In this document: in pieces, positions 435-8,832 of the stretch
How positions within the stretch are numbered: the first letter of the stretch is position 1
Layout: the number at the start of each line of letters is the position of its first letter
Notes under the pieces: model-generated
What the model was told of the DNA's origin: nothing
Database searches by the model: none
Seen by the model: the letters and a program-made list of their open reading frames with translations, nothing else
Position numbers and translations under genes: made by a program
Sequence record: LR597663
Strand: one strand, 5' to 3'
Origin: Escherichia phage VpaE1_ev78
DNA length: 64,000 bases

Positions 435-529
435 TAAGTCTCCTTTGTAGAACAAGGCAGACCTACAGCTTTAAGTAAGATGGTACAGTAATCCATACAA
501 CAAGTCAAGAACTATTGCAAGTTAAAAAA

Positions 530-575
530 GTTGTTGACAAAGTACTTGACAAGGTGTAGGCTTATAAATACTTAG
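530..575 (+). promoter_or_regulatory. promoter-like element with tandem TTGACA hexamers (GTTGACAAAGTACTTGACAAGGTGT), A/T-rich -10 candidates downstream
   Basis: Two TTGACA boxes 12 nt apart followed by TATAAATA; near-identical copy at about 42018-42048. Confidence 0.45.
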
Positions 576-683
576 AAGATAACTTAAAAGGTTCCTCTAA
601 AAAGGCTATTTAAACAGATATCTTTCTGGATATCTATCTTTTATCTTAAAAGCCTTTTAAGAGGTCTTATAAGAGGCATACCA

Positions 684-1055
684 ATGAAAAACAGAACAAA
701 CAAAGGCCAGTTTAAAAAAGGCCAATCTGGAAACCCATCTGGAAGACCAAAAGGCTCTCGTAACAAAAGTTCACTTGTAAAAGCTCAACTGACCATTGAT
801 AATTCTGCTGAGTTTGCTGCAAAGTTGTTTGAAGCGATTGTTACAAGGGACGCTGCTAAGCTTGCAGAGTTCGGTTTGACGACTGACGATGTAAACCTGA
901 AGTCGATGATGGAAGCTGGTAAAACTATCATGACTCACTCAGCAGGTGAGATGAAAGCGATTGCAGCAGACACTAAGAAGACACCTGATAATGGTGGTCA
1001 GTCTCAGGCAGATAACAAACCAACGTTCTCTGCTGTAGCGACTCTCAAAAAATAA
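684..1055 (+). CDS. hypothetical protein with N-terminal KGQSGNPSGRPKG motif (DUF5681-like, recalled not searched)
   Basis: ATG with AAGAGG RBS; basic Gly/Pro motif at N-terminus, Ala/Lys-rich helical remainder. Confidence 0.65.
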   Translation: MKNRTNKGQFKKGQSGNPSGRPKGSRNKSSLVKAQLTIDNSAEFAAKLFEAIVTRDAAKLAEFGLTTDDVNLKSMMEAGKTIMTHSAGEMKAIAADTKKTPDNGGQSQADNKPTFSAVATLKK

Positions 1056-1067
1056 TTTTAAAAGGTG

Positions 1068-1097
1068 TTGACAGACTCTACAAAGTTGCTCTAAAGT
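1068..1097 (+). promoter_or_regulatory. sigma70-like promoter candidate (TTGACA, 18 nt spacer, TAAAGT)
   Basis: Consensus -35 hexamer read directly; -10 is a weaker match. Confidence 0.45.
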
Positions 1098-1136
1098 CTG
1101 TCACATCAAACAACAAATGAGAGAAGAGAGTAAAAT

Positions 1137-2552
1137 ATGAGCGAATTATTTAAACATGCGCACCTTCATGCAGGTCGAACTGAAAATGGTGCTGTAAACC
1201 ATACTTCATCAATGTCTGCTCTTGTGGACTTTTATAAAGCTGCTGGTTCAAGCCGTAGCAATGTAGAAGTCTTACCAGACCTGTTCTACAAAGCTTTGCG
1301 TGAGGATGTTGATGTTGCAGTTCGTATTTTGCTTCATATGCGAGATGTACGAGAAGGTATGGGTGAGCGTAAAGCCTTCAGAACTGTTTTGCTTCAAGCG
1401 ATTGAAGACAAAGTTTTAGAGCCTGTACAGGTTCTTCGCATTATGGATAAGATTGCAGAACTTGGTCGTTTTGATGACTTCAAAATCTTCGTAGGTACTC
1501 GTTTCGAGACAGATGCCTTCAAACATTTAGAAGCAGCATTACTAGACCCTGCAACAGCAGGTTTGGCAGCCAAGTGGCTACCACGAGTCAAACCACGTCA
1601 TAAGCAGTTTGTAAAACGTTTCTGCAAGTTTGCCAACTTGAGTGAGAAAGAGTACCGCACACTGTTGTCTGCACTATCTGATACAGTTGAGCAAAAAATC
1701 TCTGCTAATGAGTTTGGTAAGATTGACTACAGTAAGATTCCTTCTCTTGCTGCTGCACGTTACCAAAAGCTGTTTAACCGTAAAGATGGAGAGCGTTACA
1801 AAGCTTACATCGAGTCCTTATCAAAGGGTGAGGCTAAGATTAATGCTGGTGCTGTTTACCCATACGATGTGATTAAATCTGTCAAGCATGGTAATGCAGA
1901 TGTTGCTAATGAGCAGTGGAAAGCACTACCAAACTGGATGGCAGAAGGTGAAAACATCTTATGTATGACTGATGTTTCAAGCTCAATGTCTTGGGTGAAT
2001 TTTGGCTCCATTACTGCTCTTGATATTGGTGTATCACTTGCCTTGTATGTAGCAGAACGCAATACAGGTTGCTTTAAGGATGAGTTGATGGTTTATTCAA
2101 CAAACCCTCACTTCATCGAACTGAGTGGTGATTTACGAAACCGTCATCGTCAGGTGATGCGACACGTTGAATATGGCTCAACCAACTTACAAGCAGCTTT
2201 TGACCGCATTCTTGAGATAGGTAAGAGAAACAACTTGACTCAGGAAGATATGCCAAGTAAGCTTATCATCTTCTCCGATATGGAGTTCAATCAGGTTGAT
2301 GGAGCTAACGGTCGTACAAACTTTGAAGCAATTCAGAGCAAGTACAAGAAAGCTGGATATGAGATGCCACAACTGGTATTCTGGTACTTAGCAAACCGTA
2401 ATGGTACTTGCGAAGTGTCTGTTAAGGATAACGGTGTAGCAATGGTATCTGGTTTCTCTCCAGCCACTTTAAAAGCTCTGCTTGGTGGTGAGAAGTTTGA
2501 CCCAATCAGCGTAATGCTCAAAGCAGTAATGATTGACCGCTATATCTGGTAA
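1137..2552 (+). CDS. vWA-domain protein with MIDAS motif and N-terminal helical domain (DUF2828-like / Ro60-like architecture)
   Basis: C-terminal half contains DxSxS (TDVSSSM), a conserved Thr (GSTNL) and Asp (FSDMEF) typical of vWA MIDAS; N-terminal 260 aa predicted helical; RBS GAGAAGAGAG upstream. Confidence 0.75.
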   Translation: MSELFKHAHLHAGRTENGAVNHTSSMSALVDFYKAAGSSRSNVEVLPDLFYKALREDVDVAVRILLHMRDVREGMGERKAFRTVLLQAIEDKVLEPVQVLRIMDKIAELGRFDDFKIFVGTRFETDAFKHLEAALLDPATAGLAAKWLPRVKPRHKQFVKRFCKFANLSEKEYRTLLSALSDTVEQKISANEFGKIDYSKIPSLAAARYQKLFNRKDGERYKAYIESLSKGEAKINAGAVYPYDVIKSVKHGNADVANEQWKALPNWMAEGENILCMTDVSSSMSWVNFGSITALDIGVSLALYVAERNTGCFKDELMVYSTNPHFIELSGDLRNRHRQVMRHVEYGSTNLQAAFDRILEIGKRNNLTQEDMPSKLIIFSDMEFNQVDGANGRTNFEAIQSKYKKAGYEMPQLVFWYLANRNGTCEVSVKDNGVAMVSGFSPATLKALLGGEKFDPISVMLKAVMIDRYIW

Positions 2553-2569
2553 AAAGTTTTAAAAAGGGT

Positions 2570-2598
2570 ATTGACAATGTGTTTAATACCCTTTAATA
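2570..2598 (+). promoter_or_regulatory. sigma70-like promoter (TTGACA, 17 nt, TAATAT); -35 sits inside inverted repeat AAGGGTATT / AATACCCTT
   Basis: Hexamers and spacing read directly from sequence. Confidence 0.55.
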
Positions 2599-2661
2599 TG
2601 TTCTACATAGAAACGAAATGAGAGCTTTTCTAAGATACTGAAAAATATTTTAAAAAAGTTC

Positions 2662-2691
2662 TTGACAATCACTAAAAAATAATGTTAAAGT
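2662..2691 (+). promoter_or_regulatory. sigma70-like promoter upstream of tRNA array (TTGACA, 17-18 nt, TTAAAG/TAAAGT)
   Basis: Consensus -35, approximate -10, about 25 nt upstream of first tRNA. Confidence 0.5.
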
Positions 2692-2716
2692 GGTTACATA
2701 GAGTTTGAAAAGTTTA

Positions 2717-2794
2717 TCTCTGTTTAGCTCAGCTTGGTAGAGCGTTCCGTTTGGGGCGGTAAGGCCGGAGGTTCAAGTCCTCCAACAGAGACCA
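2717..2794 (+). tRNA. tRNA-Pro (anticodon TGG)
   Basis: Hand-folded cloverleaf: 7-bp acceptor CTCTGTT/AACAGAG, D-loop AGCTTGGTAG, T-arm GGAGG-TTCAAGT-CCTCC, anticodon loop TTTGGGG, CCA encoded. Confidence 0.7.
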
Positions 2795-2801
2795 AATTAA
2801 T

Positions 2802-2879
2802 GTTCCAGTAGACAAAATGGTAAAGTCACCACTCTTTCAAAGTGGATATCTGAGGGTTCAAATCCCTTCTGGAACGCCA
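2802..2879 (+). tRNA. tRNA-Glu (anticodon TTC)
   Basis: Acceptor GTTCCAG/CTGGAAC, anticodon arm CCACT-CTTTCAA-AGTGG, T-loop TTCAAAT, CCA encoded. Confidence 0.7.
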
Positions 2880-2885
2880 GTTTTG

Positions 2886-2910
2886 ACAGAAGACCAATTG
2901 CAGCAAACTT
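2886..2910 (+). repeat. tRNA-spacer motif ACAGAAGACC-N5-CAGCAA, copy 1; followed about 60 nt later by GGTCTGG
   Basis: Motif recurs at about 3053, 3449 and 3535, partial copy near 6168. Confidence 0.6.
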
Positions 2911-2970
2911 AATCTTATTCATCTGAAGGTAAATCGGACAAAGAAGAGATTTGGTCTGGTCATTAAGAAT

Positions 2971-3047
2971 TGCGGGTATAGAGAAAGGGCGTCTCACATG
3001 TCTCATTAGCATGGTATCGGCAGGTTCGACTCCTGCACCCGCCTCCA
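2971..3047 (+). tRNA. tRNA with CAT anticodon (Met / initiator / Ile-lysidine type undetermined)
   Basis: T-arm GCAGG-TTCGACT-CCTGC, acceptor with 1:72 mismatch, anticodon stem built on palindromic CATG; position 37 appears to be T, which is atypical. Confidence 0.5.
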
Positions 3048-3052
3048 AATTT

Positions 3053-3077
3053 ACAGAAGACCGTTTACAGCAATATT
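3053..3077 (+). repeat. tRNA-spacer motif ACAGAAGACC-N5-CAGCAA, copy 2
   Basis: TTACAGAAGACCGTTTACAGCAA; GGTCTGG about 58 nt downstream. Confidence 0.6.
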
Positions 3078-3131
3078 TATTAAATTTTTAGCGGAAAAAA
3101 TTGAAAGATACGGTCTGGTAACACTAAACAT

Positions 3132-3208
3132 GGTTAGGAAGCACATAAGGTATGTGCGGTCGCCTGTTAAGCGAATGGCACAGGGTTCGAATCCCTGACT
3201 AACCGCCA
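3132..3208 (+). tRNA. tRNA-Asn (anticodon GTT)
   Basis: Acceptor GGTTAGG/ACTAACC, anticodon loop CTGTTAA, T-arm CAGGG-TTCGAAT-CCCTG, CCA encoded. Confidence 0.7.
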
Positions 3209-3217
3209 AATTTAAAT

Positions 3218-3305
3218 GTGTCGTTATCCCGTAGATGGTAGCGGTGGGGACTGTAAATCCCTTGTCATTGAGACTCGGTAGGTTCGACTCCTACACGGCA
3301 CACCA
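3218..3305 (+). tRNA. tRNA-Tyr (anticodon GTA), long variable arm
   Basis: 88 nt; acceptor GTGTCGT/ACGGCAC, anticodon arm GGGGA-CTGTAAA-TCCCT, T-loop TTCGACT. Confidence 0.7.
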
Positions 3306-3310
3306 ATAAA

Positions 3311-3388
3311 GGTTATGTAGTTTAATTTGGTTAAAATACTCCCCTGTCACGGGAGATGATGAGGGTTCAAATCCCTTCGTAACCGCCA
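3311..3388 (+). tRNA. tRNA-Asp (anticodon GTC)
   Basis: Acceptor GGTTATG/CGTAACC, anticodon arm CTCCC-CTGTCAC-GGGAG, T-loop TTCAAAT. Confidence 0.7.
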
Positions 3389-3448
3389 ATTTTGAGAGGG
3401 CTATTTAGCCCCTCCCTTAAAGAGTTCTTACGAGTATTCTTTAAAGGA

Positions 3449-3472
3449 GCAGAAGACCAAATACAGCAAGTT
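3449..3472 (+). repeat. tRNA-spacer motif, copy 3 (GCAGAAGACCAAATACAGCAA)
   Basis: Same motif family; GGTCTGG about 67 nt downstream. Confidence 0.55.
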
Positions 3473-3534
3473 ATTTAAAATTTCAAGCCAATTTAATTTT
3501 GAAAAATTTAAAACTTGGTCTGGCTCAACAAATT

Positions 3535-3560
3535 TACAGAAGACCGTTTACAGCAAAACT
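3535..3560 (+). repeat. tRNA-spacer motif, copy 4 (TTACAGAAGACCGTTTACAGCAA)
   Basis: Identical core to copy 2. Confidence 0.6.
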
Positions 3561-3591
3561 TAACAATCTATTTCTCCGGTAAAGAAAAGGC

Positions 3592-3626
3592 GAAGGTTCG
3601 ATTCCTTCACTCGGCAGATGTCGAGT
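3592..3626 (+). ncRNA. tRNA-like minihelix: canonical T-arm (GAAGG-TTCGATT-CCTTC) directly followed by a 7-bp acceptor-like hairpin (ACTCGGC-AGAT-GTCGAGT); no D or anticodon arm found
   Basis: T-loop consensus present but no complementary 5-prime acceptor strand within 120 nt upstream; complementary strand lies immediately downstream. Confidence 0.4.
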
Positions 3627-3668
3627 TGGTGTAATGGTAGTACTTAAGATGATAAACAACGGTCTGGT

Positions 3669-3688
3669 AATTATCTTTGTAGATAAGT
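3669..3688 (+). repeat. hairpin element TTATCT-TTGT-AGATAA preceded by GGTCTGG
   Basis: Second copy with inverted loop (TTATCT-ACAA-AGATAA) at about 3795-3810; the two flank roughly 105 nt. Confidence 0.55.
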
Positions 3689-3792
3689 TATTAAGCTTAC
3701 CTGTGAGTATGCGACCACAAAGGGTGAAAGGGTAAATTCTAGATTTAAACCCAAAAAGGCACATCGCTACAGACCTTAAGCAAGTCTGGGTA

Positions 3793-3812
3793 GCTTATCT
3801 ACAAAGATAATT
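3793..3812 (+). repeat. hairpin element TTATCT-ACAA-AGATAA, second copy, preceded by GTCTGGG
   Basis: Reverse complement of the copy at 3669-3688. Confidence 0.55.
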
Positions 3813-3816
3813 TAAT

Positions 3817-3892
3817 GGAAGTGTAGCAGAATGGTGATGCGGCAGACTTTTAATCTGACAGGCGATGGGTTCGAATCCCTCCACTTCTACCA
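3817..3892 (+). tRNA. tRNA-Lys (anticodon TTT)
   Basis: Acceptor GGAAGTG/CACTTCT, anticodon loop CTTTTAA, T-loop TTCGAAT; two outer T-stem mismatches. Confidence 0.6.
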
Positions 3893-3896
3893 ATAT

Positions 3897-3973
3897 GGTT
3901 CAGTCGCAGATAAGGTAATGCAAGGGTCTCATAAGCCCTATGAATGTGGGTTCGATTCCCATCTGAACCTCCA
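3897..3973 (+). tRNA. tRNA-Met (anticodon CAT)
   Basis: Acceptor GGTTCAG/CTGAACC, anticodon arm AGGGT-CTCATAA-GCCCT, T-loop TTCGATT, CCA encoded. Confidence 0.65.
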
Positions 3974-3974
3974 A

Positions 3975-4050
3975 GCTGGTATAGTTAAGAAGGTTATAAC
4001 ACTCCCCTGATAAGGGAACATCGGTGGTTCGATTCCACCTACCAGTACCA
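3975..4050 (+). tRNA. tRNA-Ile (anticodon GAT)
   Basis: Acceptor GCTGGTA/TACCAGT, anticodon loop CTGATAA, T-arm GGTGG-TTCGATT-CCACC. Confidence 0.65.
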
Positions 4051-4065
4051 ATTTCAATAAAGTTG

Positions 4066-4094
4066 TTGACATTGAGATGTGACTACTTTATAGT
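4066..4094 (+). promoter_or_regulatory. sigma70-like promoter (TTGACA, 17 nt, TATAGT)
   Basis: Near-consensus hexamers with 17-nt spacer inside the tRNA array. Confidence 0.6.
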
Positions 4095-4298
4095 AACCTT
4101 AGTTTTCGTTGCGTAGCGTCTATTTTGCAAATTTAAAATAAATGCAAACGACAATGTTTTTCTGGCAGTAGCTTGATAGGCTAAACACCAGTGAGGTCTT
4201 CCAATCCCTCATCAAAGAATTTGGCGTACTCGCCCACGGTATGATTAATAAGGTGGGCATCTTTAAGGGCTTTCTAAGAGAGTCTTTAAAGATAATTA

Positions 4299-4380
4299 CG
4301 GGGCGTATCTCAGCGGTCTTCTAAACCGCCGTTAACCGAGTAAGTGGAGTATGCGGGTTCGAGTCCTGCCGCCTCGACCA
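4299..4380 (+). tRNA. atypical tRNA-like gene (82 nt): acceptor and T-arm canonical, anticodon-like hairpin with loop CTTCTAA (TCT, Arg-like), no recognisable D-arm, 23-nt extra region
   Basis: Acceptor CGGGGCG/CGCCTCG, T-arm GCGGG-TTCGAGT-CCTGC, CCA encoded; the only strong internal hairpin is GCGGT-CTTCTAA-ACCGC right after positions 8-9. Confidence 0.45.
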
Positions 4381-4394
4381 ATTTTGGAGAAATC

Positions 4395-4742
4395 ATGAAA
4401 ACTTGTATTAGGTGCAAACTTAGCAAGGATGAAAATGATTTCTACATGAAAGATGGTAGGAGAACTCATTCATACTGTAAAAAGTGTGTTAATGAGCAAA
4501 CCATAGAAAGACAAAGAGCACTTAAACTCTCAGCTATTGAGTACAAAGGTGGGGTTTGTCACGATTGTGGTAAAAAGTATCATCCAGCAGTGTATGACTT
4601 CCATCATTTGAATCCTTCAGAGAAAGATTTTAACATTGGTCATAGGAAAAGCCTTAAGTTCTCTCAAGAACTAAAAGATGAACTTGACAAATGTGTTTTG
4701 CTATGTTCAAATTGCCATAGGGTAAGACATGCAAAGTATTAG
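4395..4742 (+). CDS. HNH homing endonuclease
   Basis: Motif DFHHLNPSEKDF...CVLLCSNCHRVRH; ORF-track start lies inside the upstream tRNA, so trimmed to ATG at 4395 (RBS GGAGA). Confidence 0.8.
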   Translation: MKTCIRCKLSKDENDFYMKDGRRTHSYCKKCVNEQTIERQRALKLSAIEYKGGVCHDCGKKYHPAVYDFHHLNPSEKDFNIGHRKSLKFSQELKDELDKCVLLCSNCHRVRHAKY

Positions 4743-4885
4743 TTAGCAGATTACTTAGACGACCTAAGCGGGTCTTCCTGTAGGGAGGTGGTCTGTATCT
4801 CATGTTTTCCAGAACATGTAAATAATCTGAGAAGAAGCTTGACAGTGTTGAGATAACAGGGTAAGCTTCGAATTATAGTTTTAAT

Positions 4886-4956
4886 AGGGGTGAGCTATGG
4901 CAGCAATAGAGTCTCCAAAATTCTTGATTAGAGTTCGAATCTCTACACCCCTGCCA
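4886..4956 (+). tRNA. tRNA-Trp (anticodon CCA), short with reduced D-arm
   Basis: Acceptor AGGGGTG/CACCCCT, anticodon arm AGAGT-CTCCAAA-ATTCT, T-arm TAGAG-TTCGAAT-CTCTA; about 71 nt. Confidence 0.55.
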
Positions 4957-4970
4957 GAACAGGTGCTTGT

Positions 4971-5375
4971 ATGAAACTTTGTAGAAAATGTTCTCAAGAA
5001 AAGCCTTTAAGCTGCTTTCATAAAAGAGGTAATGGCTATCAGTCTGCTTGCAAAGATTGTAAAGCTAAGTACTCAGCAAAGAGATACAAAGAAGACCCTA
5101 CTTATAAAGCAAAAAGAAAAGTTAGGGCAAAATATGACAAAAAGAGGAACAGAGAGTTCCTTAGTAGATATAAAAAGTTTTGCAAATGCAGAATATGTGG
5201 CGAATCTGAGCCAGTAGCTTTGGATTTTCATCACTTAGACCCTAAAGAGAAAGATTTTGCTCCAAGCAATCTTAAAACTTACTCTAGGGGCACTATTAAG
5301 CGTGAAGTCCGTAAGTGTGTTGTGCTTTGTTCAAACTGTCATAGGAAAGTTCATGAAGGACTGTTAAGTATTTAA
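4971..5375 (+). CDS. HNH homing endonuclease (paralogue of 4395..4742)
   Basis: Motif DFHHLDPKEKDF...CVVLCSNCHRKVH; RBS AGGTG. Confidence 0.8.
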   Translation: MKLCRKCSQEKPLSCFHKRGNGYQSACKDCKAKYSAKRYKEDPTYKAKRKVRAKYDKKRNREFLSRYKKFCKCRICGESEPVALDFHHLDPKEKDFAPSNLKTYSRGTIKREVRKCVVLCSNCHRKVHEGLLSI

Positions 5376-5388
5376 CAGTCTTATTAGG

Positions 5389-5476
5389 GGTAGGTAGCGG
5401 CTAATGGTAGCCAAACTGTCTTGAAAACAGTTGCCACTGTAGAGATACGGTGAGGGTTCGACTCCTTTACTTACCG
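5389..5476 (+). tRNA. tRNA-Ser (anticodon TGA), long variable arm
   Basis: Acceptor GGTAGGT/ACTTACC, anticodon arm ACTGT-CTTGAAA-ACAGT, T-loop TTCGACT; CCA not encoded. Confidence 0.65.
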
Positions 5477-5633
5477 CCTAATAAGATTTAAAGCCAAGCT
5501 TCATTCGGATGTTGCTTTGGTATCCCGCGTGTATTGTTGTACACACTGATAAAGCACCTAGTAGGTGTCACGGAGAAGAGATAATATCAAGCTCTCCAAA
5601 GGTTCTAGTCACCGGATTAAACAAGACTATGCA

Positions 5634-5654
5634 AAGACCTTTTTAGGTCTTTTT
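5634..5654 (+). terminator. possible intrinsic terminator or processing hairpin (AAGACC-TTTTTA-GGTCTT plus TTTT)
   Basis: Short hairpin followed by T-run inside the tRNA array. Confidence 0.3.
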
Positions 5655-5733
5655 AGAGGGCTTCTAAGGTTATTACAGCTTGTTGTGGAACCTTGTTGCT
5701 TAGGTTCTTAGAAGTTCTCTAAAAAGATTTAAT

Positions 5734-5811
5734 GGGAGATTGACGGTAATTGGTAAACCTATCTCGCTTAGAACGAGATGTTTGAGGGTTCGAATCCCTT
5801 GTCTCCTACCA
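5734..5811 (+). tRNA. tRNA with TAG anticodon (nominally Leu) but type-I short variable arm
   Basis: Acceptor GGGAGAT/GTCTCCT, anticodon arm TCTCG-CTTAGAA-CGAGA, T-arm GAGGG-TTCGAAT-CCCTT; variable region about 5 nt. Confidence 0.55.
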
Positions 5812-5818
5812 AATTAAT

Positions 5819-5894
5819 GCAGGTGTAGCAAAATGGTTATGCGGCTGACTCTTAATCAGTAAGACGATGGGTTCAATTCCCTCCACCTGTACCA
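5819..5894 (+). tRNA. tRNA-Lys (anticodon CTT)
   Basis: Acceptor GCAGGTG/CACCTGT, anticodon loop CTCTTAA, T-loop TTCAATT; similar to the 3817 tRNA. Confidence 0.6.
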
Positions 5895-5899
5895 AAAAT

Positions 5900-5975
5900 G
5901 GGGTCATAGTTTATATGGTTAAAATTCGAGTTTTGCAAACTTGGGAACTGAGTTCAATTCTCAGTGACTCCACCA
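5900..5975 (+). tRNA. tRNA-Ala (anticodon TGC)
   Basis: Acceptor GGGGTCA/TGACTCC, anticodon arm CGAGT-TTTGCAA-ACTTG, T-arm CTGAG-TTCAATT-CTCAG. Confidence 0.65.
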
Positions 5976-5981
5976 ATTAGT

Positions 5982-6056
5982 GCATCCATAGTTTAAACGG
6001 GAAAATTACAGTCTTCCAAACTGAGGTTGAGGGTTCGATTCCCTCTGGATGCTCCA
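5982..6056 (+). tRNA. tRNA-Gly (anticodon TCC)
   Basis: Acceptor GCATCCA/TGGATGC, anticodon loop CTTCCAA, T-arm GAGGG-TTCGATT-CCCTC. Confidence 0.65.
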
Positions 6057-6063
6057 AATTAAT

Positions 6064-6139
6064 GCTCCTATCGTATAATTGGCTATTACGGTTGCCTTGT
6101 AAGTAACTTATCAGGGTTCGAATCCTTGTGGGAGCACCA
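6064..6139 (+). tRNA. tRNA-Thr (anticodon TGT)
   Basis: Acceptor GCTCCTA/TGGGAGC, anticodon arm GTTGC-CTTGTAA-GTAAC, T-loop TTCGAAT. Confidence 0.65.
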
Positions 6140-6236
6140 ATTTAGAGGTCAAGTGAAAGACCGCTTTGAGTCAACTGAAGACCGTAACAAATTCCACGGA
6201 GTTGAGTTAGCGGCACAACTCCAGACCTCTTCTCAC

Positions 6237-6311
6237 ACTCGCTTAGTTTATATGGTAAAACACCACCCTTACAAGATGAAGAAAAAGGTTCAAGTCCTTT
6301 AGTGAGTACCA
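6237..6311 (+). tRNA. tRNA, probably Val (anticodon TAC); weak anticodon stem
   Basis: Acceptor ACTCGCT/AGTGAGT, T-arm AAAGG-TTCAAGT-CCTTT, anticodon loop CTTACAA with two stem mismatches. Confidence 0.45.
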
Positions 6312-6312
6312 T

Positions 6313-6390
6313 GTTCCAGTATCCCAATTGGCAGAGGATGCAAGCTCAAACCTTGTACTAGTGATGGTTCGAATCCATCTTGGAACACCA
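6313..6390 (+). tRNA. tRNA with CAA anticodon (nominally Leu) but type-I short variable arm
   Basis: Acceptor GTTCCAG/TTGGAAC, anticodon arm GCAAG-CTCAAAC-CTTGT, T-arm GATGG-TTCGAAT-CCATC. Confidence 0.5.
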
Positions 6391-6395
6391 ATTTT

Positions 6396-6471
6396 GCAGG
6401 ATTAGTTCAAATGGATAGAGCAACAGTCTACGAAGCTGTTAATAGGGGTTCAAATCCCTTATCCTGCGCCA
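6396..6471 (+). tRNA. tRNA-Arg (anticodon ACG)
   Basis: Acceptor GCAGGAT/ATCCTGC, anticodon arm ACAGT-CTACGAA-GCTGT, T-loop TTCAAAT. Confidence 0.65.
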
Positions 6472-6490
6472 ATTTAAAGAGGCTATTTAG

Positions 6491-7048
6491 ATGAGATATT
6501 TGAAGTATGCTTCATGGATTTTCTTAGCTTTGTTAGAACCATTTGCAGCAATCTTAGCAGTTATCTTAGCACCTTTTGTAGTTCCATTCTACAGTGAGAA
6601 GAAAGGACACTTACCTTTCGGGTTCAGATGGATGGAGACATATGACAACCCAATTGATGGTGATGAAGGTCACGTTAAAAGATGGGCTAATATTAGATGG
6701 ATTGGTAAACTAGGTGTCTACATGCAAAGAGTCGGATGGCTCTGGAGAAACAAAGCTTATAACTTCTCTTACCATGTGTTAGGAAGAGATGTAAAAGATG
6801 TTACTAAGTGGAAAGGTAATATCAACGTAAGTTCTAACCCTGAAGATAATCAGACAGGTTATCTCCTAATGTGGAACAGTAATGCTTGGGGATTATTCGC
6901 TTTTACCCCATCAATTAAAATCTTTGGTAAACAGTTTTACTGGAGAATTTATATTGGGTGGAAGCTAAAAAGTGTTGTCCCAGAAGAAAGAGCATTCTCA
7001 AGGGAAAGAGTTATGTTGGCATTCTTTATTCATCCACTAAGAAAGTAA
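6491..7048 (+). CDS. Trp-rich membrane protein of unknown function (185 aa) inside the tRNA array
   Basis: RBS AAAGAGG; hydrophobic N-terminal segment WIFLALLEPFAAILAVILAPFVVPF; many Trp residues. Confidence 0.65.
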   Translation: MRYLKYASWIFLALLEPFAAILAVILAPFVVPFYSEKKGHLPFGFRWMETYDNPIDGDEGHVKRWANIRWIGKLGVYMQRVGWLWRNKAYNFSYHVLGRDVKDVTKWKGNINVSSNPEDNQTGYLLMWNSNAWGLFAFTPSIKIFGKQFYWRIYIGWKLKSVVPEERAFSRERVMLAFFIHPLRK

Positions 7049-7056
7049 AGATTTAA

Positions 7057-7132
7057 AGGGGATTAGTTTACAAGGTTAAAACCTCGGTCTTTGAAATCGA
7101 AGAAGTTGGTTCAATTCCAACATCCCCCGCCA
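7057..7132 (+). tRNA. tRNA-Gln (anticodon TTG)
   Basis: Acceptor AGGGGAT/ATCCCCC with 1:72 mismatch, anticodon loop CTTTGAA, T-arm GTTGG-TTCAATT-CCAAC. Confidence 0.6.
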
Positions 7133-7134
7133 AT

Positions 7135-7213
7135 GCTCCATTACTCCAATTGGCAGAGAGGCCAGACTTAAAATCTGTGTTATGTATCGGTTCGAATCCG
7201 ATATGGAGTACCA
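7135..7213 (+). tRNA. tRNA with TAA anticodon (nominally Leu) but type-I variable arm (about 7 nt)
   Basis: Acceptor GCTCCAT/ATGGAGT, anticodon loop CTTAAAA, T-arm ATCGG-TTCGAAT-CCGAT. Confidence 0.5.
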
Positions 7214-7218
7214 AATTT

Positions 7219-7294
7219 AGCGGTATAGCATAACTGGCAATGCAGCAGCCTCTGAAGCTGTCCTATTAAGGTTCAAATCCTTATGCCGCTGCCA
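7219..7294 (+). tRNA. tRNA-Gln (anticodon CTG)
   Basis: Acceptor AGCGGTA/TGCCGCT, anticodon arm GCAGC-CTCTGAA-GCTGT, T-arm TAAGG-TTCAAAT-CCTTA. Confidence 0.6.
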
Positions 7295-7325
7295 CTTCTA
7301 AGGATTCTTACGAGAGTCCTTAAAT

Positions 7326-7401
7326 GTGGCCTTATCATAAATGGTAATGACCCATGCTGTGAACATGGTCTATACGGGTTCAAATCCCGTAGGTCACCCC
7401 A
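7326..7401 (+). tRNA. tRNA-His (anticodon GTG)
   Basis: Acceptor GTGGCCT/AGGTCAC, perfect anticodon arm CCATG-CTGTGAA-CATGG, T-arm ACGGG-TTCAAAT-CCCGT. Confidence 0.7.
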
Positions 7402-7406
7402 ATTTA

Positions 7407-7481
7407 TAGTCCAAGTAGCTTATATGGTTAAAGCGCGTGTCTGAAAAACATGAGAAGAGGGTTCAAATCCCACTGGACTAC
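7407..7481 (+). tRNA. tRNA-Phe (anticodon GAA)
   Basis: Acceptor TAGTCCA/TGGACTA, anticodon arm CGTGT-CTGAAAA-ACATG, T-loop TTCAAAT; CCA not fully encoded. Confidence 0.6.
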
Positions 7482-7499
7482 CAATTTCAAAGGTGCTTA

Positions 7500-8234
7500 A
7501 TGAAAGAGATGACAGAACAAGGTAAGGAGATTTTTAATCTCTTAAAAACCGGTAAAGGGTTCTCTAACCCACTTATTACTGGTGCAGCAGTTCTCGGTGG
7601 AACCGTAGCTGCTTCTACATCACTTGTAAGCTCTATTAGTTCTGTAACAGACCCTACAATGAAGGAGAAACTTGTTGCTGCTGGACTTACAACAGTCCTT
7701 CTAAACAGCTTTACAACAAGCCTTACAAGCACTACAGCAACTACTAAAACTCTGACAGACTACGGTCAAAAGTCTATTGATGAGTTTTCATCACGTATGC
7801 AGGTAGCAAAGGGGTATTCCAATGTTATGGGTGCAGCAGGAGAACAAGTTGGTTGTACACCATTCAGTGGTATCATGGGTGTTGCTACAGAGTATGGTCA
7901 AAAAGCTATTGACATGATGAACAGTACACTAGATAGTGTTAATGGTGTGTTAAGTGACTTGCAAGATGCTATTGATAAGGGTCTTGATACTGTTTCTGAT
8001 TTAGCTAATCAGGCTGTTAGTAAGATTAATGAAGGTATTTCAAAGATTACAGCTTATGCAGATGAAGTTGTGCAGATGATTGAAGAAGAAGCTGCCCTTA
8101 TTGCAGAGTACCTTAAAACGAATATCAATGGGTTCTTAGCAGGTATCTTACCAGACTGGTTTGATGATGCCTGTAAAACTGGTGTGATTGACACTATTGC
8201 AACACCAGAAATGAAGAGCGCATTACAGAAATAA
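7500..8234 (+). CDS. hypothetical Ser/Thr/Ala-rich protein (244 aa) inside the tRNA array
   Basis: ORF-track start overlaps tRNA-Phe; trimmed to in-frame ATG at 7500; low-complexity T/S/A/G-rich middle. Confidence 0.5.
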   Translation: MKEMTEQGKEIFNLLKTGKGFSNPLITGAAVLGGTVAASTSLVSSISSVTDPTMKEKLVAAGLTTVLLNSFTTSLTSTTATTKTLTDYGQKSIDEFSSRMQVAKGYSNVMGAAGEQVGCTPFSGIMGVATEYGQKAIDMMNSTLDSVNGVLSDLQDAIDKGLDTVSDLANQAVSKINEGISKITAYADEVVQMIEEEAALIAEYLKTNINGFLAGILPDWFDDACKTGVIDTIATPEMKSALQK

Positions 8235-8236
8235 AT

Positions 8237-8329
8237 GGAAGATTAACCCTAAAAGGTAAGGGAGCAGTTTGCTAAACTGCCAGTAGCTGAGAAATCGGTG
8301 TACCAGTTCAAGTCTGGTATCTTCCTCCA
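8237..8329 (+). tRNA. tRNA-Ser (anticodon GCT), long variable arm
   Basis: 93 nt; acceptor GGAAGAT/ATCTTCC, anticodon arm GCAGT-TTGCTAA-ACTGC, T-arm ACCAG-TTCAAGT-CTGGT; starts 3 nt after upstream stop. Confidence 0.7.
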
Positions 8330-8333
8330 ATTT

Positions 8334-8409
8334 GAATCCGTGACAGAAATGGCTATGTGCCTGTCTGCAAAACAGGTTTATAAGGGTTCGAGTCCCTTCG
8401 GATTCTCCA
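8334..8409 (+). tRNA. tRNA-Cys (anticodon GCA)
   Basis: Acceptor GAATCCG/CGGATTC, anticodon arm CCTGT-CTGCAAA-ACAGG, T-arm AAGGG-TTCGAGT-CCCTT. Confidence 0.7.
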
Positions 8410-8446
8410 AGTTATTTTACTCTCTCTCAATTAAAATAATAATAAT

Positions 8447-8516
8447 GCCCTGCTATAAGTATTCTTCCTTTCGCTACCGAAGAGTATTTTTAGACAGGGC
8501 TTTTTTACAGAGTTAT
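8447..8516 (+). terminator. intrinsic terminator closing the tRNA array (long imperfect hairpin GCCCTG...CAGGGC plus TTTTTT)
   Basis: Stem arms with internal sub-stem, followed by six T. Confidence 0.55.
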
Positions 8517-8571
8517 ACTTTATAAGAAGGCTTATACAGTATGTCTCTGACGTACATTGTGGTTTCTCCTT

Positions 8572-8595
8572 GACGGTCTCTGTGCCGTCTTTTTT
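8572..8595 (+). terminator. intrinsic terminator (GACGG-TCTCTGTG-CCGTC plus TTTTTT)
   Basis: GC-rich 5-bp stem and T-run immediately upstream of structural module. Confidence 0.6.
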
Positions 8596-8631
8596 AAGGA
8601 GAAACATGGTTAATTATTTGGAGAAAACATA

Positions 8632-8832
8632 ATGAGTGAGACCGTTTATAAAGAACTTTATGAAGCTAATAAGAAGCTAGAATTTATGCAGAATACTATC
8701 ATGGCAATTGCAGACAGATTGTCTGTAGCAACAGGTATTGATATTAAAGAAGCATCTATGGATGCACTTCTTGATGCTGTTGATGCAAAGTTCGAAGTTA
8801 AGAAAGAAGAGACTGCTACAGACTCTGAATAA
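8632..8832 (+). CDS. hypothetical small acidic protein (66 aa), possible terminase-associated
   Basis: RBS GGAG; directly upstream of terminase large subunit; assignment positional only. Confidence 0.45.
   Translation: MSETVYKELYEANKKLEFMQNTIMAIADRLSVATGIDIKEASMDALLDAVDAKFEVKKEETATDSE

Follow-up and report, generated by a model that had tools for sequence, protein, structure and literature searches.

A Ro60-like protein and neighbouring candidate Y-like RNAs in the tRNA array of Escherichia phage VpaE1_ev78

The stretch of DNA analysed here (the window; 64,000 nucleotides of Escherichia phage VpaE1_ev78, a phage of the Felix O1 type, sequence record LR597663) carries on its plus strand an ATG-initiated open reading frame at 1137..2552, which encodes a 471 amino acid protein, as the initial annotation described. 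A putative sigma-70-like promoter (TTGACA-18-TAAAGT; 1068..1097, plus strand), assigned by its consensus match at 10 of 12 positions, is located 40 nt upstream of the gene. Two further plus-strand sites of this type (2571-2599 and 2662-2691), also called by consensus match (10/12 each), lie between the stop codon and the first tRNA gene, and the start of the transcript containing the tRNAs and the Y-like RNAs described below is likely to fall within 2571..2691. The tRNA array was correctly placed directly downstream of the gene: tRNA-Pro begins at 2718, 165 nt past the stop codon, and is followed by 26 tRNAs on the same strand. A terminase gene is found a few kb from 1137..2552. The DUF5681 gene upstream (684-1055) was considered as a conserved partner and rejected, as it is present only in Ounavirinae and in L008. 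A search for prophage or host copies gave no match among 5,426 complete E. coli genomes.

The AlphaFold model of the protein (pLDDT 89.7, pTM 0.89) is all-helical up to about residue 263 and adopts the α/β vWA fold from residue 274. The DVSSS stretch (residues 279-283, codons 1971..1985 on the plus strand) aligns with DVSAS of Ro60 (1yvp). The MIDAS motif is complete, with D279, S281, S283, T349 and D381 unchanged across 48 family members. The proposed combination of a helical N-terminus with a C-terminal vWA domain carrying a MIDAS motif thus agrees with both the model and residue conservation. Structure comparison over the full length matched Ro60, beyond vWA domains alone, which supports the suggested Ro60/Rsr-like layout; an unrelated fold of the N-terminal domain had been allowed for, and the comparison instead returned Ro60. 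As modelled, the protein has the three-dimensional architecture of Ro60, a helical-repeat domain joined to a vWA domain, with a helical part that is about 90 residues shorter than that of Ro60.

By sequence, the protein belongs to the DUF2828/DUF7788 family. The Pfam profiles DUF2828 (PF11443, 6e-30) and DUF7788 (PF25043, 5e-44) were both matched above the cut-off, and PHROG 850 was matched across residues 1-471 (6e-184). The family comprises 709 phage records and 2839 homologues (protein clusters) with the same domain pair. No match to the TROVE profile (PF05731) was obtained at E<=1 in the Pfam search of the protein, whereas a phage Ro-like protein used as positive control matched this profile at 1.5e-36. 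The vWA_Ro60 profile (PF25045) was likewise unmatched, and the C-terminal domain is covered by DUF7788 plus a weak VWA_2 match (7.5e-4, below the cut-off). Thus, among the profiles named in the initial annotation, DUF2828 was found together with DUF7788, the vWA match was weak and TROVE was absent. An hhalign comparison with a TROVE Ro60 aligned only the vWA part (residues 265-448; 49% probability, E 1.7e-4), which is suggestive of distant homology and falls short of family membership. The family profile reached 1yvp among PDB sequences only at an E-value of about 1, over the MIDAS stretch. Placing the protein within TROVE at the sequence level was therefore abandoned, since no usable match came from sequence searches of Pfam, NCBIfam and PDB, and structure comparison alone places it; PADLOC gave no match for the protein. 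The model points to a divergent Ro60-type protein, in which the vWA/MIDAS domain would close the helical repeat domain into a putative ring. The DUF2828/DUF7788 family would then be the substitute of large phages for canonical TROVE Ro60.

A part in the virion, or an accessory structural role based on a vWA domain of the generic adhesion type, would be compatible with the nearby terminase gene and with the homologue of Salmonella phage 7t3, which is annotated as 'structural protein'. We consider it extremely improbable, given that the full-length fold match is to Ro60 and not to vWA domains only, that the gene resides in a tRNA/early-type region with its own sigma-70-like promoter, and that the knockout of the orthologue in phage Bas63 is viable and defective only on a host carrying the Ppl defence (PMC11482910).

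Four plus-strand elements, U1 to U4, are located 0.33-1.1 kb downstream of the gene. U1 (2884..2962) fills the spacer between tRNA-Glu and tRNA-Met and consists of an outer stem (UGAC/GUCA), an AGA-versus-G internal loop, an inner stem (AGACCAA/UUGGUCU) and a loop beginning with UUGCAGCAA. U2 (3051..3121) fills the tRNA-Met/tRNA-Asn spacer and has the corresponding parts UUAC/GUAA, AGACCGU/ACGGUCU and UUACAGCAA; its outer stem is changed to UUGC/GCAA in L004, L005 and SUSP1, and it scores 34.6 bits with the covariance model R1, which was built from DUF2828-associated RNAs. U3 (3447..3526; z -2.7) combines GAGC/GCUC, AGACCAA/UUGGUCU and AUACAGCAA. These three short elements span 71-80 nt. U4 (3534..3670; R1 99 bits) is 137 nt long and has closing stems of the same type. 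It contains CAGCAA at 3551-3556, a V hairpin (3571-3587), a T arm (3592-3608), a closed acceptor-like hairpin of 7 bp (3609-3626) and a D arm (3627-3643).

All four units adopt one common fold, in which a closing stem formed by the 5' and 3' ends and the AGA/G internal loop are immediately followed by UUnCAGCAA. The 5' motif occurs exactly four times in the window, compared with 0.21 expected occurrences. U1-U4 are kept in Felixounavirus, Suspvirus and Mooglevirus with compensatory changes, and their G.U variants can pair only in the plus-strand RNA. The expectation of a Y-RNA-like structured RNA near the gene is therefore borne out by four units that share a fold and are conserved in three genera. 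About 245 GenBank records leave these elements unannotated; as previously unannotated candidates identified from sequence, the Y-like RNAs beside the gene would constitute the new part of the locus. The AGA/G internal loop was considered as a kink-turn, and this was dismissed on inspection, since no tandem G.A pairs flank the bulge.

The tRNA-like domain of U4 is circularly permuted in the order V-T-closed acceptor-D, which corresponds to the YrlA design. The element at 3592-3626, correctly noted before as non-canonical and tRNA-like, represents its T arm and closed acceptor hairpin. After reversal of the permutation, ARAGORN called U4 a tRNA in four out of five lineages, and none of 25 controls was called (native-order U4, 0/5; shuffled D-half, 0/20). 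The acceptor-like stem (AS) covaries while the T and D arms are nearly invariant, as has been described for YrlA (PMC4201824). Since the acceptor stem of this tRNA look-alike is closed by a loop, it cannot be charged. One GenBank record lists U4 as tRNA-Thr, which we reject because the native order gives no tRNA call and the cloverleaf appears only in the un-permuted sequence.

The second element that had been highlighted, at 4299..4380 (plus strand), is indeed a non-canonical tRNA-like structure, though not a Y RNA candidate. Adjacent to an open reading frame for an HNH endonuclease, it resembles an aberrant tRNA-Arg(UCU) and occupies the position at which relatives have a normal tRNA-Arg(UCU). 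The anticodon arm is retained, the D arm is missing and the extra arm is long; the element scores 31.7 bits with the Rfam tRNA model and receives no ARAGORN call. As R1 did not match it and it appears to be a degenerate tRNA-Arg(UCU) replacement, it is not counted among the Y-like RNAs.

Elements of the same kind were found well beyond this phage. A sequence-free descriptor consisting of T arm, closed hairpin and D arm gave 25 matches, against none in five shuffles. The matches at distant DUF2828 loci (12 elements in 10 loci) share the orientation of the gene without exception, and each sits inside a closing stem that leads into CAGCAA or CCGCAA. All of them are clear of ARAGORN tRNA calls, which disposes of tandem tRNAs with a common acceptor stem. 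RNAalifold recovered four helices with double changes at 20 of 22 pairs, pairing reached 95.9% as against 40-48% with slid partners, and 0/500 shuffles matched the observed score, although these pairing statistics are partly built in because the descriptors required pairing. A search with R1 of 1.09 Mb on both strands produced 158 matches at E<=1, all of them on the gene strand. Strong matches outside the training set abut the gene in L011, L020, L054, L035, L042 and L012. R1 matches occur within 1.5 kb of the DUF2828 gene in 45 of 76 distant phage loci, leaving about 31 with no match at this distance, and 51 of the 95 distant-locus matches fall between -250 and +500 nt from the gene. Near the gene, the motif density is 1.49/kb on the plus strand versus 0.08/kb on the minus strand. 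In the reverse direction, 33 of 80 IMG/VR loci picked by an RNA-only pattern contain a DUF2828 gene, in all 33 cases on the same strand as the RNA; 16 of the proteins are only 25-65% identical. An AGA/G-bulge descriptor was discarded as a family-wide signature, as its matches in distant loci did not exceed the shuffle background. The bulge is confined to Felixounavirus, Suspvirus and Mooglevirus, and the wider signature is the closing stem with CAGCAA.

The R1 scores of short forms (25-36 bits) overlap the range of tandem-tRNA artefacts, and the credibility of these candidates rests on position, strand, motif and presence in tRNA-free loci, where short forms are found 20-50 nt past the gene stop. 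It has to be considered whether the elements belong to tRNA arrays as such, as processing signals, pseudo-tRNAs or stable by-products, and lie near the gene only because the gene lies near tRNAs. U1-U4 are embedded in such an array, tRNAs occur within 1 kb of the gene in 21 of 75 distant loci, and several stable, tRNA-like RNAs are annotated in the tRNA region of phage T5, which has no Ro-like gene among the matches of the protein family. This reading is nevertheless improbable in view of the short forms that directly follow the stop codon in more than 20 loci with no tRNA within about 7 kb. In addition, the T5 tRNA region (25 tRNAs), used as negative control, gave at most 27 bits with R1, U4 alone satisfies the descriptor among the approximately 25 tRNA junctions of each Felixounavirus array, and R1 also matches YrlA sites next to TROVE Ro60.

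The elements could also be cis-regulatory 5' or 3' UTR structures that influence the stability or autoregulation of the gene's own mRNA, and not separate RNAs. In many distant loci, a short form starts 20-50 nt past the stop codon, or the start codon follows 13-100 nt after the end of a long form, as expected for such structures. In the window and in all Ounavirinae, however, two promoter-like sites and two tRNAs lie between the gene and the units, which occur in four copies within tRNA-tRNA spacers. Some loci have the RNA 3-8 kb away from the gene, and the long forms contain a complete tRNA-like domain. A cis-regulatory origin thus appears very unlikely.

Bacterial Ro60 (Rsr), studied in S. 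Typhimurium, M. smegmatis and mycobacteriophages (PMC4201824), has the same helical plus vWA/MIDAS fold, while the phage protein is DUF2828/DUF7788 by profile and its helical part is the shorter one. YrlA and YrlB measure about 70-140 nt, and they are encoded on the strand of the Ro60 gene no more than a few kb from it; the long form has V-T-AS-D modules and the short form keeps the presumed protein-binding module (PMC4201824). U1-U4 resemble them in placement (within 4 kb of the Ro60-like gene, same strand, 71-137 nt compared with about 80-130 nt for YrlA), and U4 shows the YrlA module order V, T arm, closed AS and D arm within a stem of the 5' and 3' ends. They differ in having UUnC(A/C)GCAA after the closing stem instead of the YrlA motif GNCGAAN0-1G, which was missing near the 5' end on inspection of U1-U4 and of a 17-sequence alignment. 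The single GGCGAAG of U4 is part of its T stem.

The proposed Infernal check with Y-RNA/YrlA models turned out negative, since the Rfam models Y_RNA and YrlA (RF02553; gathering threshold of YrlA 69 bits) gave no match within 500-8700 even at E<=10. Nor does the Rfam YrlA model reach its threshold (30.8 bits) at the TROVE Ro60 locus of Streptomyces phage Jada, our positive control for a TROVE-type phage locus, and it is thus insensitive for phage versions. R1 recognised both Rfam-YrlA sites beside the Jada gene (56.4 and 45.2 bits). In Jada and cluster C mycobacteriophages, a TROVE-type 'Ro-like RNA binding protein' is likewise encoded inside a same-strand tRNA array. Unlike the protein described here, the Jada protein has clear TROVE and vWA_Ro60 Pfam matches, and its RNAs lack CAGCAA. 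The Ro60 of Thermus phage phiLo also differs in being deposited as a TROVE-domain protein (PMC12135203; PDB 9kop, 9l5y). Its Yrl1 and Yrl2 were picked from the region upstream of the gene with the help of a CGAA motif and RNAfold, neither a tRNA-like domain nor comparative support is described for them, and phiLo Ro60 binds PNPase (PMC12135203). In phage T5, rna1, rna2, rna3 and others are small stable RNAs among tRNA genes, some of them called tRNA-like; in contrast to U1-U4, they are unmatched by R1, and no T5 Ro-like gene is found among the phage matches of the protein family.

A function has been reported for the orthologue in Bas63 (Escherichia phage JohannRWettstein), bas63_0130 or gp130, which has 471 amino acids, is 97% identical and is likewise located directly upstream of tRNA-Pro. 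The PhageMaP preprint already described gp130 as structurally Ro60-like and located beside tRNA genes with 'possibly Y RNAs' among them (PMC11482910). That suggestion referred to some of the annotated tRNA genes and came without an RNA family or comparative evidence, whereas the candidates presented here are unannotated spacers, one of which is overlaid with small minus-strand CDSs in the Bas63 record. According to the same study, gp130 counters the Ppl defence: gp130 alone, whether plasmid-borne or placed in T7, allowed plaques to form again on Ppl, with a plating efficiency even above that of the no-defence control (PMC11482910).

Because gp130 alone suffices on Ppl, the phage RNAs are either dispensable for the phenotype or replaced by host RNAs. 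The Ro60-like scaffold might thus need no partner and target Ppl, or the 3' ends of nucleic acids, with a part such as its cavity or MIDAS face; the RNAs would then be irrelevant to it. The activity in T7, a phage without a tRNA array (PMC11482910), is in line with this. Ppl has been described as a 3'-5' exonuclease of ssDNA by which 3'-OH ends are sensed (PMC12904381), and a ring that binds 3' ends could block this without RNA. We nonetheless regard such a protein-only counter-defence as unlikely, as it leaves unexplained why a conserved RNA that shows compensatory changes is found with the gene, and on its strand, in distant phages, tRNA-free loci included, and why a scan based on the RNA alone leads back to the gene. 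The action of the protein alone and a partnership with RNAs would be compatible if the RNA merely regulates the protein.

The fold, the RNA family, its covariation and the two-way genomic linkage to the gene support the initial idea of a module of Ro60-like protein and tRNA-like RNAs. We favour, with a probability of roughly 0.6, a divergent Ro60-type protein with the neighbouring same-strand small RNAs U1-U4 as its likely partners. U1-U3 and U4 would be freed from the tRNA-array precursor by processing of the flanking tRNAs, and three short RNAs plus one long RNA would mirror the bacterial YrlB (short) and YrlA (long) arrangement. By analogy with Ro60-Y RNA particles, the RNA may dock on the protein via the common closing-stem/UUnCAGCAA module. 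It may then regulate access to the ring, tether the ring to other factors via its tRNA-like domain, or both, while the protein would engage single-stranded 3' ends. The link of such a particle to Ppl comes from the published work on the 97%-identical gp130 (PMC11482910).

A broader and more tentative possibility, which we consider rather doubtful, is that DUF2828 Ro rings and CAGCAA Y-like RNAs form a widespread, hitherto unrecognised RNP of large virulent phages that shields 3' ends. The ring would cap or thread single-stranded 3' ends and so keep 3'-5' exonucleases of the host away from them; Ppl, one such exonuclease, would sense ends made by the phage's own homing endonucleases. The tRNA-mimic RNA would gate the ring or recruit host tRNA/RNA enzymes. 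If so, there would be a reason for the module to travel together with the tRNA arrays of phages and with the HNH endonucleases of these arrays. The literature searched contained no published link between DUF2828 and Y RNAs, and such a publication may exist beyond that scope.

Particles of Ro60 and Y RNA have been conserved all the way from bacteria to humans, yet their part in infection is little understood. Large phages carry thousands of DUF2828 family members, one of which has a clean, T7-transferable anti-Ppl phenotype, and U1-U4 provide RNA partner candidates for a family for which none had been known. Both TROVE and DUF2828, two sequence families with Ro-like genes, are represented in phage tRNA arrays alongside tRNA-mimic RNAs, and the R1 covariance model can be used to annotate such RNAs. 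The candidate recognition module, defined as closing stem plus CAGCAA, makes it testable whether a phage Ro protein needs its Y RNA. As the setting is an E. coli phage amenable to genetics, the role of the protein in escaping bacterial immunity becomes testable as well.

The window derives from a Felix O1-type phage (Felixounavirus), and over its first 9 kb it shares approximately 97% identity with wV8, Felix O1 and numerous relatives. As described in the initial annotation, the open reading frame at 1137-2552 (plus strand) encodes a protein of 471 amino acids and lies directly upstream of a tRNA array; tRNA-Pro starts 165 nt past its stop codon and is followed by 26 tRNAs of the same orientation. 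A sigma-70-like promoter of its own precedes the gene, and two further ones are located ahead of the array. Upstream, 684-1055 (plus strand) encodes a protein of 123 amino acids with a Lys/Arg-rich N-terminus, which RefSeq records of relatives label as a DUF5681 domain protein; outside Ounavirinae, its conservation alongside the Ro-like gene is limited to one comparison locus (L008). No copy of the Ro-like gene was found in complete E. coli genomes.

The protein matches the Pfam families DUF2828 (6e-30), DUF7788 (5e-44) and, weakly, VWA_2, and over its full length PHROG 850, 'RNA-binding protein' (6e-184); NCBIfam and PADLOC gave no match. Because D279-V-S-S-S283, T349 and D381 are invariant across 48 homologues, the MIDAS motif proposed for the vWA domain is complete. 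TROVE was absent from the Pfam results. By sequence, likeness to Ro60 was not borne out: the family profile matched 1yvp with an E-value of about 1 and in the MIDAS stretch only, and an hhalign comparison with a genuine TROVE phage Ro60 aligned the vWA part alone (49% probability, E 1.7e-4). A Ro60-type fold is nevertheless predicted for the protein. Its orthologue in phage Bas63, gp130, is 97% identical, occupies the same genomic position and was reported to be structurally similar to Ro60 and directly upstream of tRNA genes, of which 'some' 'are possibly Y RNAs' (PhageMaP preprint, PMC11482910). The interpretation of the protein as Ro60-like was thus right, but not new. The family is present in 709 phage records (tblastn), including phages of Vibrio, Listeria, Staphylococcus, Campylobacter and Mycobacterium, where it is often annotated as 'RNA-binding protein' or 'Ro-like RNA binding protein', and 2839 protein clusters carry the same domain pair (DUF2828 plus DUF7788).

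The proposal that Y RNAs accompany the gene found no support in Rfam, which detected only tRNAs in the array, even at E<=10, and no Y RNA or YrlA. The spacers nevertheless contain a repeated motif, AGAAGACCnnnTnCAGCAA, with four exact copies versus 0.21 expected by chance, each followed 50-115 nt downstream by GGTCTGG. The corresponding RNAs, three short (U1-U3) and one long (U4), share a common fold consisting of an outer 4-bp stem, an AGA-opposite-G internal loop, an inner stem of 7-8 bp and a large loop that starts with UUnCAGCAA. All are on the plus strand: U1 (2884-2962) occupies the tRNA-Glu/tRNA-Met spacer, U2 (3051-3121) the tRNA-Met/tRNA-Asn spacer, while the tRNA-Asp/tRNA-Lys interval holds both U3 (3447-3526) and U4 (3534-3670). 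Their stems covary both among units (UGAC/GUCA, UUAC/GUAA and GAGC/GCUC; CCAA/UUGG versus CCGU/ACGG) and among genomes (UUAC/GUAA versus UUGC/GCAA), and the observed G.U variants allow pairing only in the plus-strand RNA. All four are retained in Felixounavirus, Suspvirus and Mooglevirus.

Other spacers of the array are structured as well. Two adjacent stable hairpins (3389-3448, plus strand; z -3.4) are located right after tRNA-Asp and before U3. The unannotated plus-strand spacer directly 3' of U4 (3669-3812) adopts a multi-branched fold with a 24-bp closing stem (MFE -48.3 kcal/mol, z -7.2, reached in 0 of 200 shuffles), which may represent a further structured RNA or a processing stem of the RNase III type. 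In the Bas63 record, the region from U3 to this spacer contains two small CDSs on the minus strand (bas63_0137 and 0138). Between tRNA-Ser and tRNA-Leu, a long hairpin with almost perfect pairing (5643-5732, plus strand; z -4.2) accounts for a spurious Rfam microRNA match.

Within its closing stem, U4 contains a V hairpin (3571-3587; 5 bp, 7-nt loop), a canonical T arm (3592-3608), a 7-bp acceptor-like hairpin, AS, that starts immediately 3' of the T stem (3609-3626), and UG followed by a D arm whose loop contains GG (3627-3643). The T and D arms are nearly invariant across genera, and AS occurs as three unrelated but always paired sequences (ACUCGGC/GUCGAGU, ACACG/CGUGU and ACCCUUC/GAAGGGU). 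Both the V-T-AS-D order and this conservation pattern, with T and D conserved and AS conserved as structure only, are those described for YrlA by Chen et al. When U4 was un-permuted, by placing the AS 5' strand and D before V, T and the AS 3' strand, ARAGORN recognized a full cloverleaf for the window, Bas63, SUSP1 and Sf17, but none in native-order U4 (0/5) or after shuffling of the D-half (0/20). In its predicted structure, U4 is a YrlA-type tRNA mimic; it is present in approximately 245 phage records and essentially never annotated.

Of the two tRNA-like elements singled out initially, 3592-3626 corresponds exactly to the T arm and AS of U4, whereas 4299-4380 is an aberrant tRNA. It stands in place of the normal tRNA-Arg(UCU) of relatives, and its identity as a Y RNA is ruled out, as it keeps the tRNA-Arg(UCU) anticodon arm, lacks a D arm, has a long extra arm and is fused to the start of an adjoining HNH ORF (4344/4376-4742). 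This suggests a homing-endonuclease-associated replacement of the tRNA gene. A second HNH ORF in the array (4971-5375) is a paralogue of the one ending at 4742 (repeat D15).

We then compared 80 IMG/VR loci encoding relatives of the protein, 75 of which are only 39-48% identical. Among these 75 distant loci, a tRNA was present within 1 kb of the gene in 21 and absent from the stored flanks in 44; wherever present, all tRNAs are on the strand of the gene. In a Klebsiella phage from a different subfamily, the gene lies within a tRNA array. The tRNA synteny of the gene is a trend, not a rule. A descriptor requiring only a T arm, a closed hairpin and a D arm gave no match in five shuffles; in 10 distant loci it detected such modules, every one on the gene strand and without overlap with a tRNA call. 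A closing stem of 6-9 bp surrounds each of them, and each loop starts with (U)UnC(A/C)GCAA, neither of which the descriptor demanded. From an alignment of 17 sequences, RNAalifold recovered four helices (the closing stem plus T, AS and D), and 20 of their 22 pairs show double changes. Pairing reached 95.9% versus 40-48% with slid partners, and the observed covariation score was reached in 0/500 shuffles; these figures are qualified by the use of pairing as a selection criterion, and the comparisons that follow are fairer tests.

R1, a covariance model trained exclusively on DUF2828-associated RNAs, gave 158 matches at E<=1 in 1.09 Mb searched on both strands, all on the gene strand. Strong matches outside the training set end 13 nt (L011) or 14 nt (L020) before the start codon or begin 32 nt after the stop codon (L054); L035 and L042 are likewise strong, and L012 has three tandem copies. 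A match lies within 1.5 kb of the gene in 45 of 76 distant loci, and 51 of the 95 distant-locus matches are located from -250 to +500 nt relative to it. Loci devoid of tRNAs carry a short form, AAGG-N5-UUACAGCAA-(35-45 nt)-N5'-CCUG, 20-50 nt past the stop codon, whose stem interior differs among loci with perfect compensation; U1-U3 are this short form. The density of TNC[AC]GCAA on the gene strand is 1.49/kb within 400 nt of the gene, versus 0.08/kb on the opposite strand and approximately 0.2/kb in the remaining sequence. In the reverse direction, scanning all of IMG/VR for the RNA-only pattern TTACAGCAA, 35-60 nt, AGGTTCGANTCC retrieved 80 loci, 33 of which contain a DUF2828 gene, always on the strand of the RNA (33/33) and in 16 cases only 25-65% identical; among the other 47, just two extend at least 4 kb on both sides. 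Thus, the linkage between the gene and a structured RNA family with a long, tRNA-mimicking and a short form holds in both directions. In several distant phages (L012 6282-6674, L055 8399-8639, L086 7702-7962, L031 11907-12535), two or three long-form copies adjoin the gene in tandem, so copy number and the mix of long and short forms vary widely among lineages.

A genuine TROVE-type system provides a comparison. In Streptomyces phage Jada, a 'Ro-like' gene (TROVE 1.5e-36, vWA_Ro60 9e-56) inside a tRNA array is flanked by two YrlA-like RNAs (2925-3043 and 4121-4233) that are unannotated in the record. Rfam YrlA scores them at 30.8 and 27.4 bits, below its gathering score of 69, and RF02553 appears insensitive for phage YrlA. 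R1 scores the same sites at 56.4 and 45.2 bits, which indicates that DUF2828-associated and Jada RNAs share an architecture. They differ in the 5' motif: CAGCAA is missing from the Jada RNAs, and the YrlA motif GNCGAAN0-1G is missing from the DUF2828-associated RNAs. As a negative control, 50 kb of T5 with its 25 tRNAs and annotated stable RNAs yielded a best R1 score of 27 bits, across two adjacent tRNAs. The T5 tRNA region (NC_005859, 28-42 kb) has eight annotated 'stable RNAs with unknown functions', of which three are designated tRNA-like; R1 matched none, and T5 was not among the tblastn matches of the Ro-like family. The T5 RNAs are a separate class of array-embedded RNAs.

In Ro60, Y RNA binds the outer surface and single-stranded 3' ends enter the cavity; Y RNAs gate this cavity and tether Ro60 to PNPase, and the Ro60-Yrl complex of phage phiLo binds and attenuates PNPase. 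By analogy, U1-U4 would be set free by processing of the flanking tRNAs and bind the protein via the closing stem/CAGCAA module, and the particle may act on nucleic-acid 3' ends or host RNA enzymes. Deleting gp130 cripples Bas63 on a host carrying the defense protein Ppl, and gp130 alone, supplied by plasmid or T7 insertion, restores plaquing (PMC11482910); the Results of that preprint name 'ppl' as the gp130 target, while one Discussion sentence gives 'hhe' for the T7 transfer, an inconsistency within the text. Since gp130 alone suffices, a regulatory or adaptor role for the RNAs is more likely than a need for them in the anti-Ppl phenotype. Ppl is described as a 3'-5' ssDNA exonuclease triggered by nucleotide depletion and by 3'-OH ends from phage homing endonucleases (2026 review, PMC12904381). 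Speculatively, a 3'-end-capping ring would suit a defense sensing such ends; two homing endonucleases are encoded in the window's own array (4344-4742 and 4971-5375). The RNA component is new as far as the literature searched shows, and strong comparative support from sequence points to a variant Ro60-Y RNA system, which would differ in both its protein family and its RNA motif.
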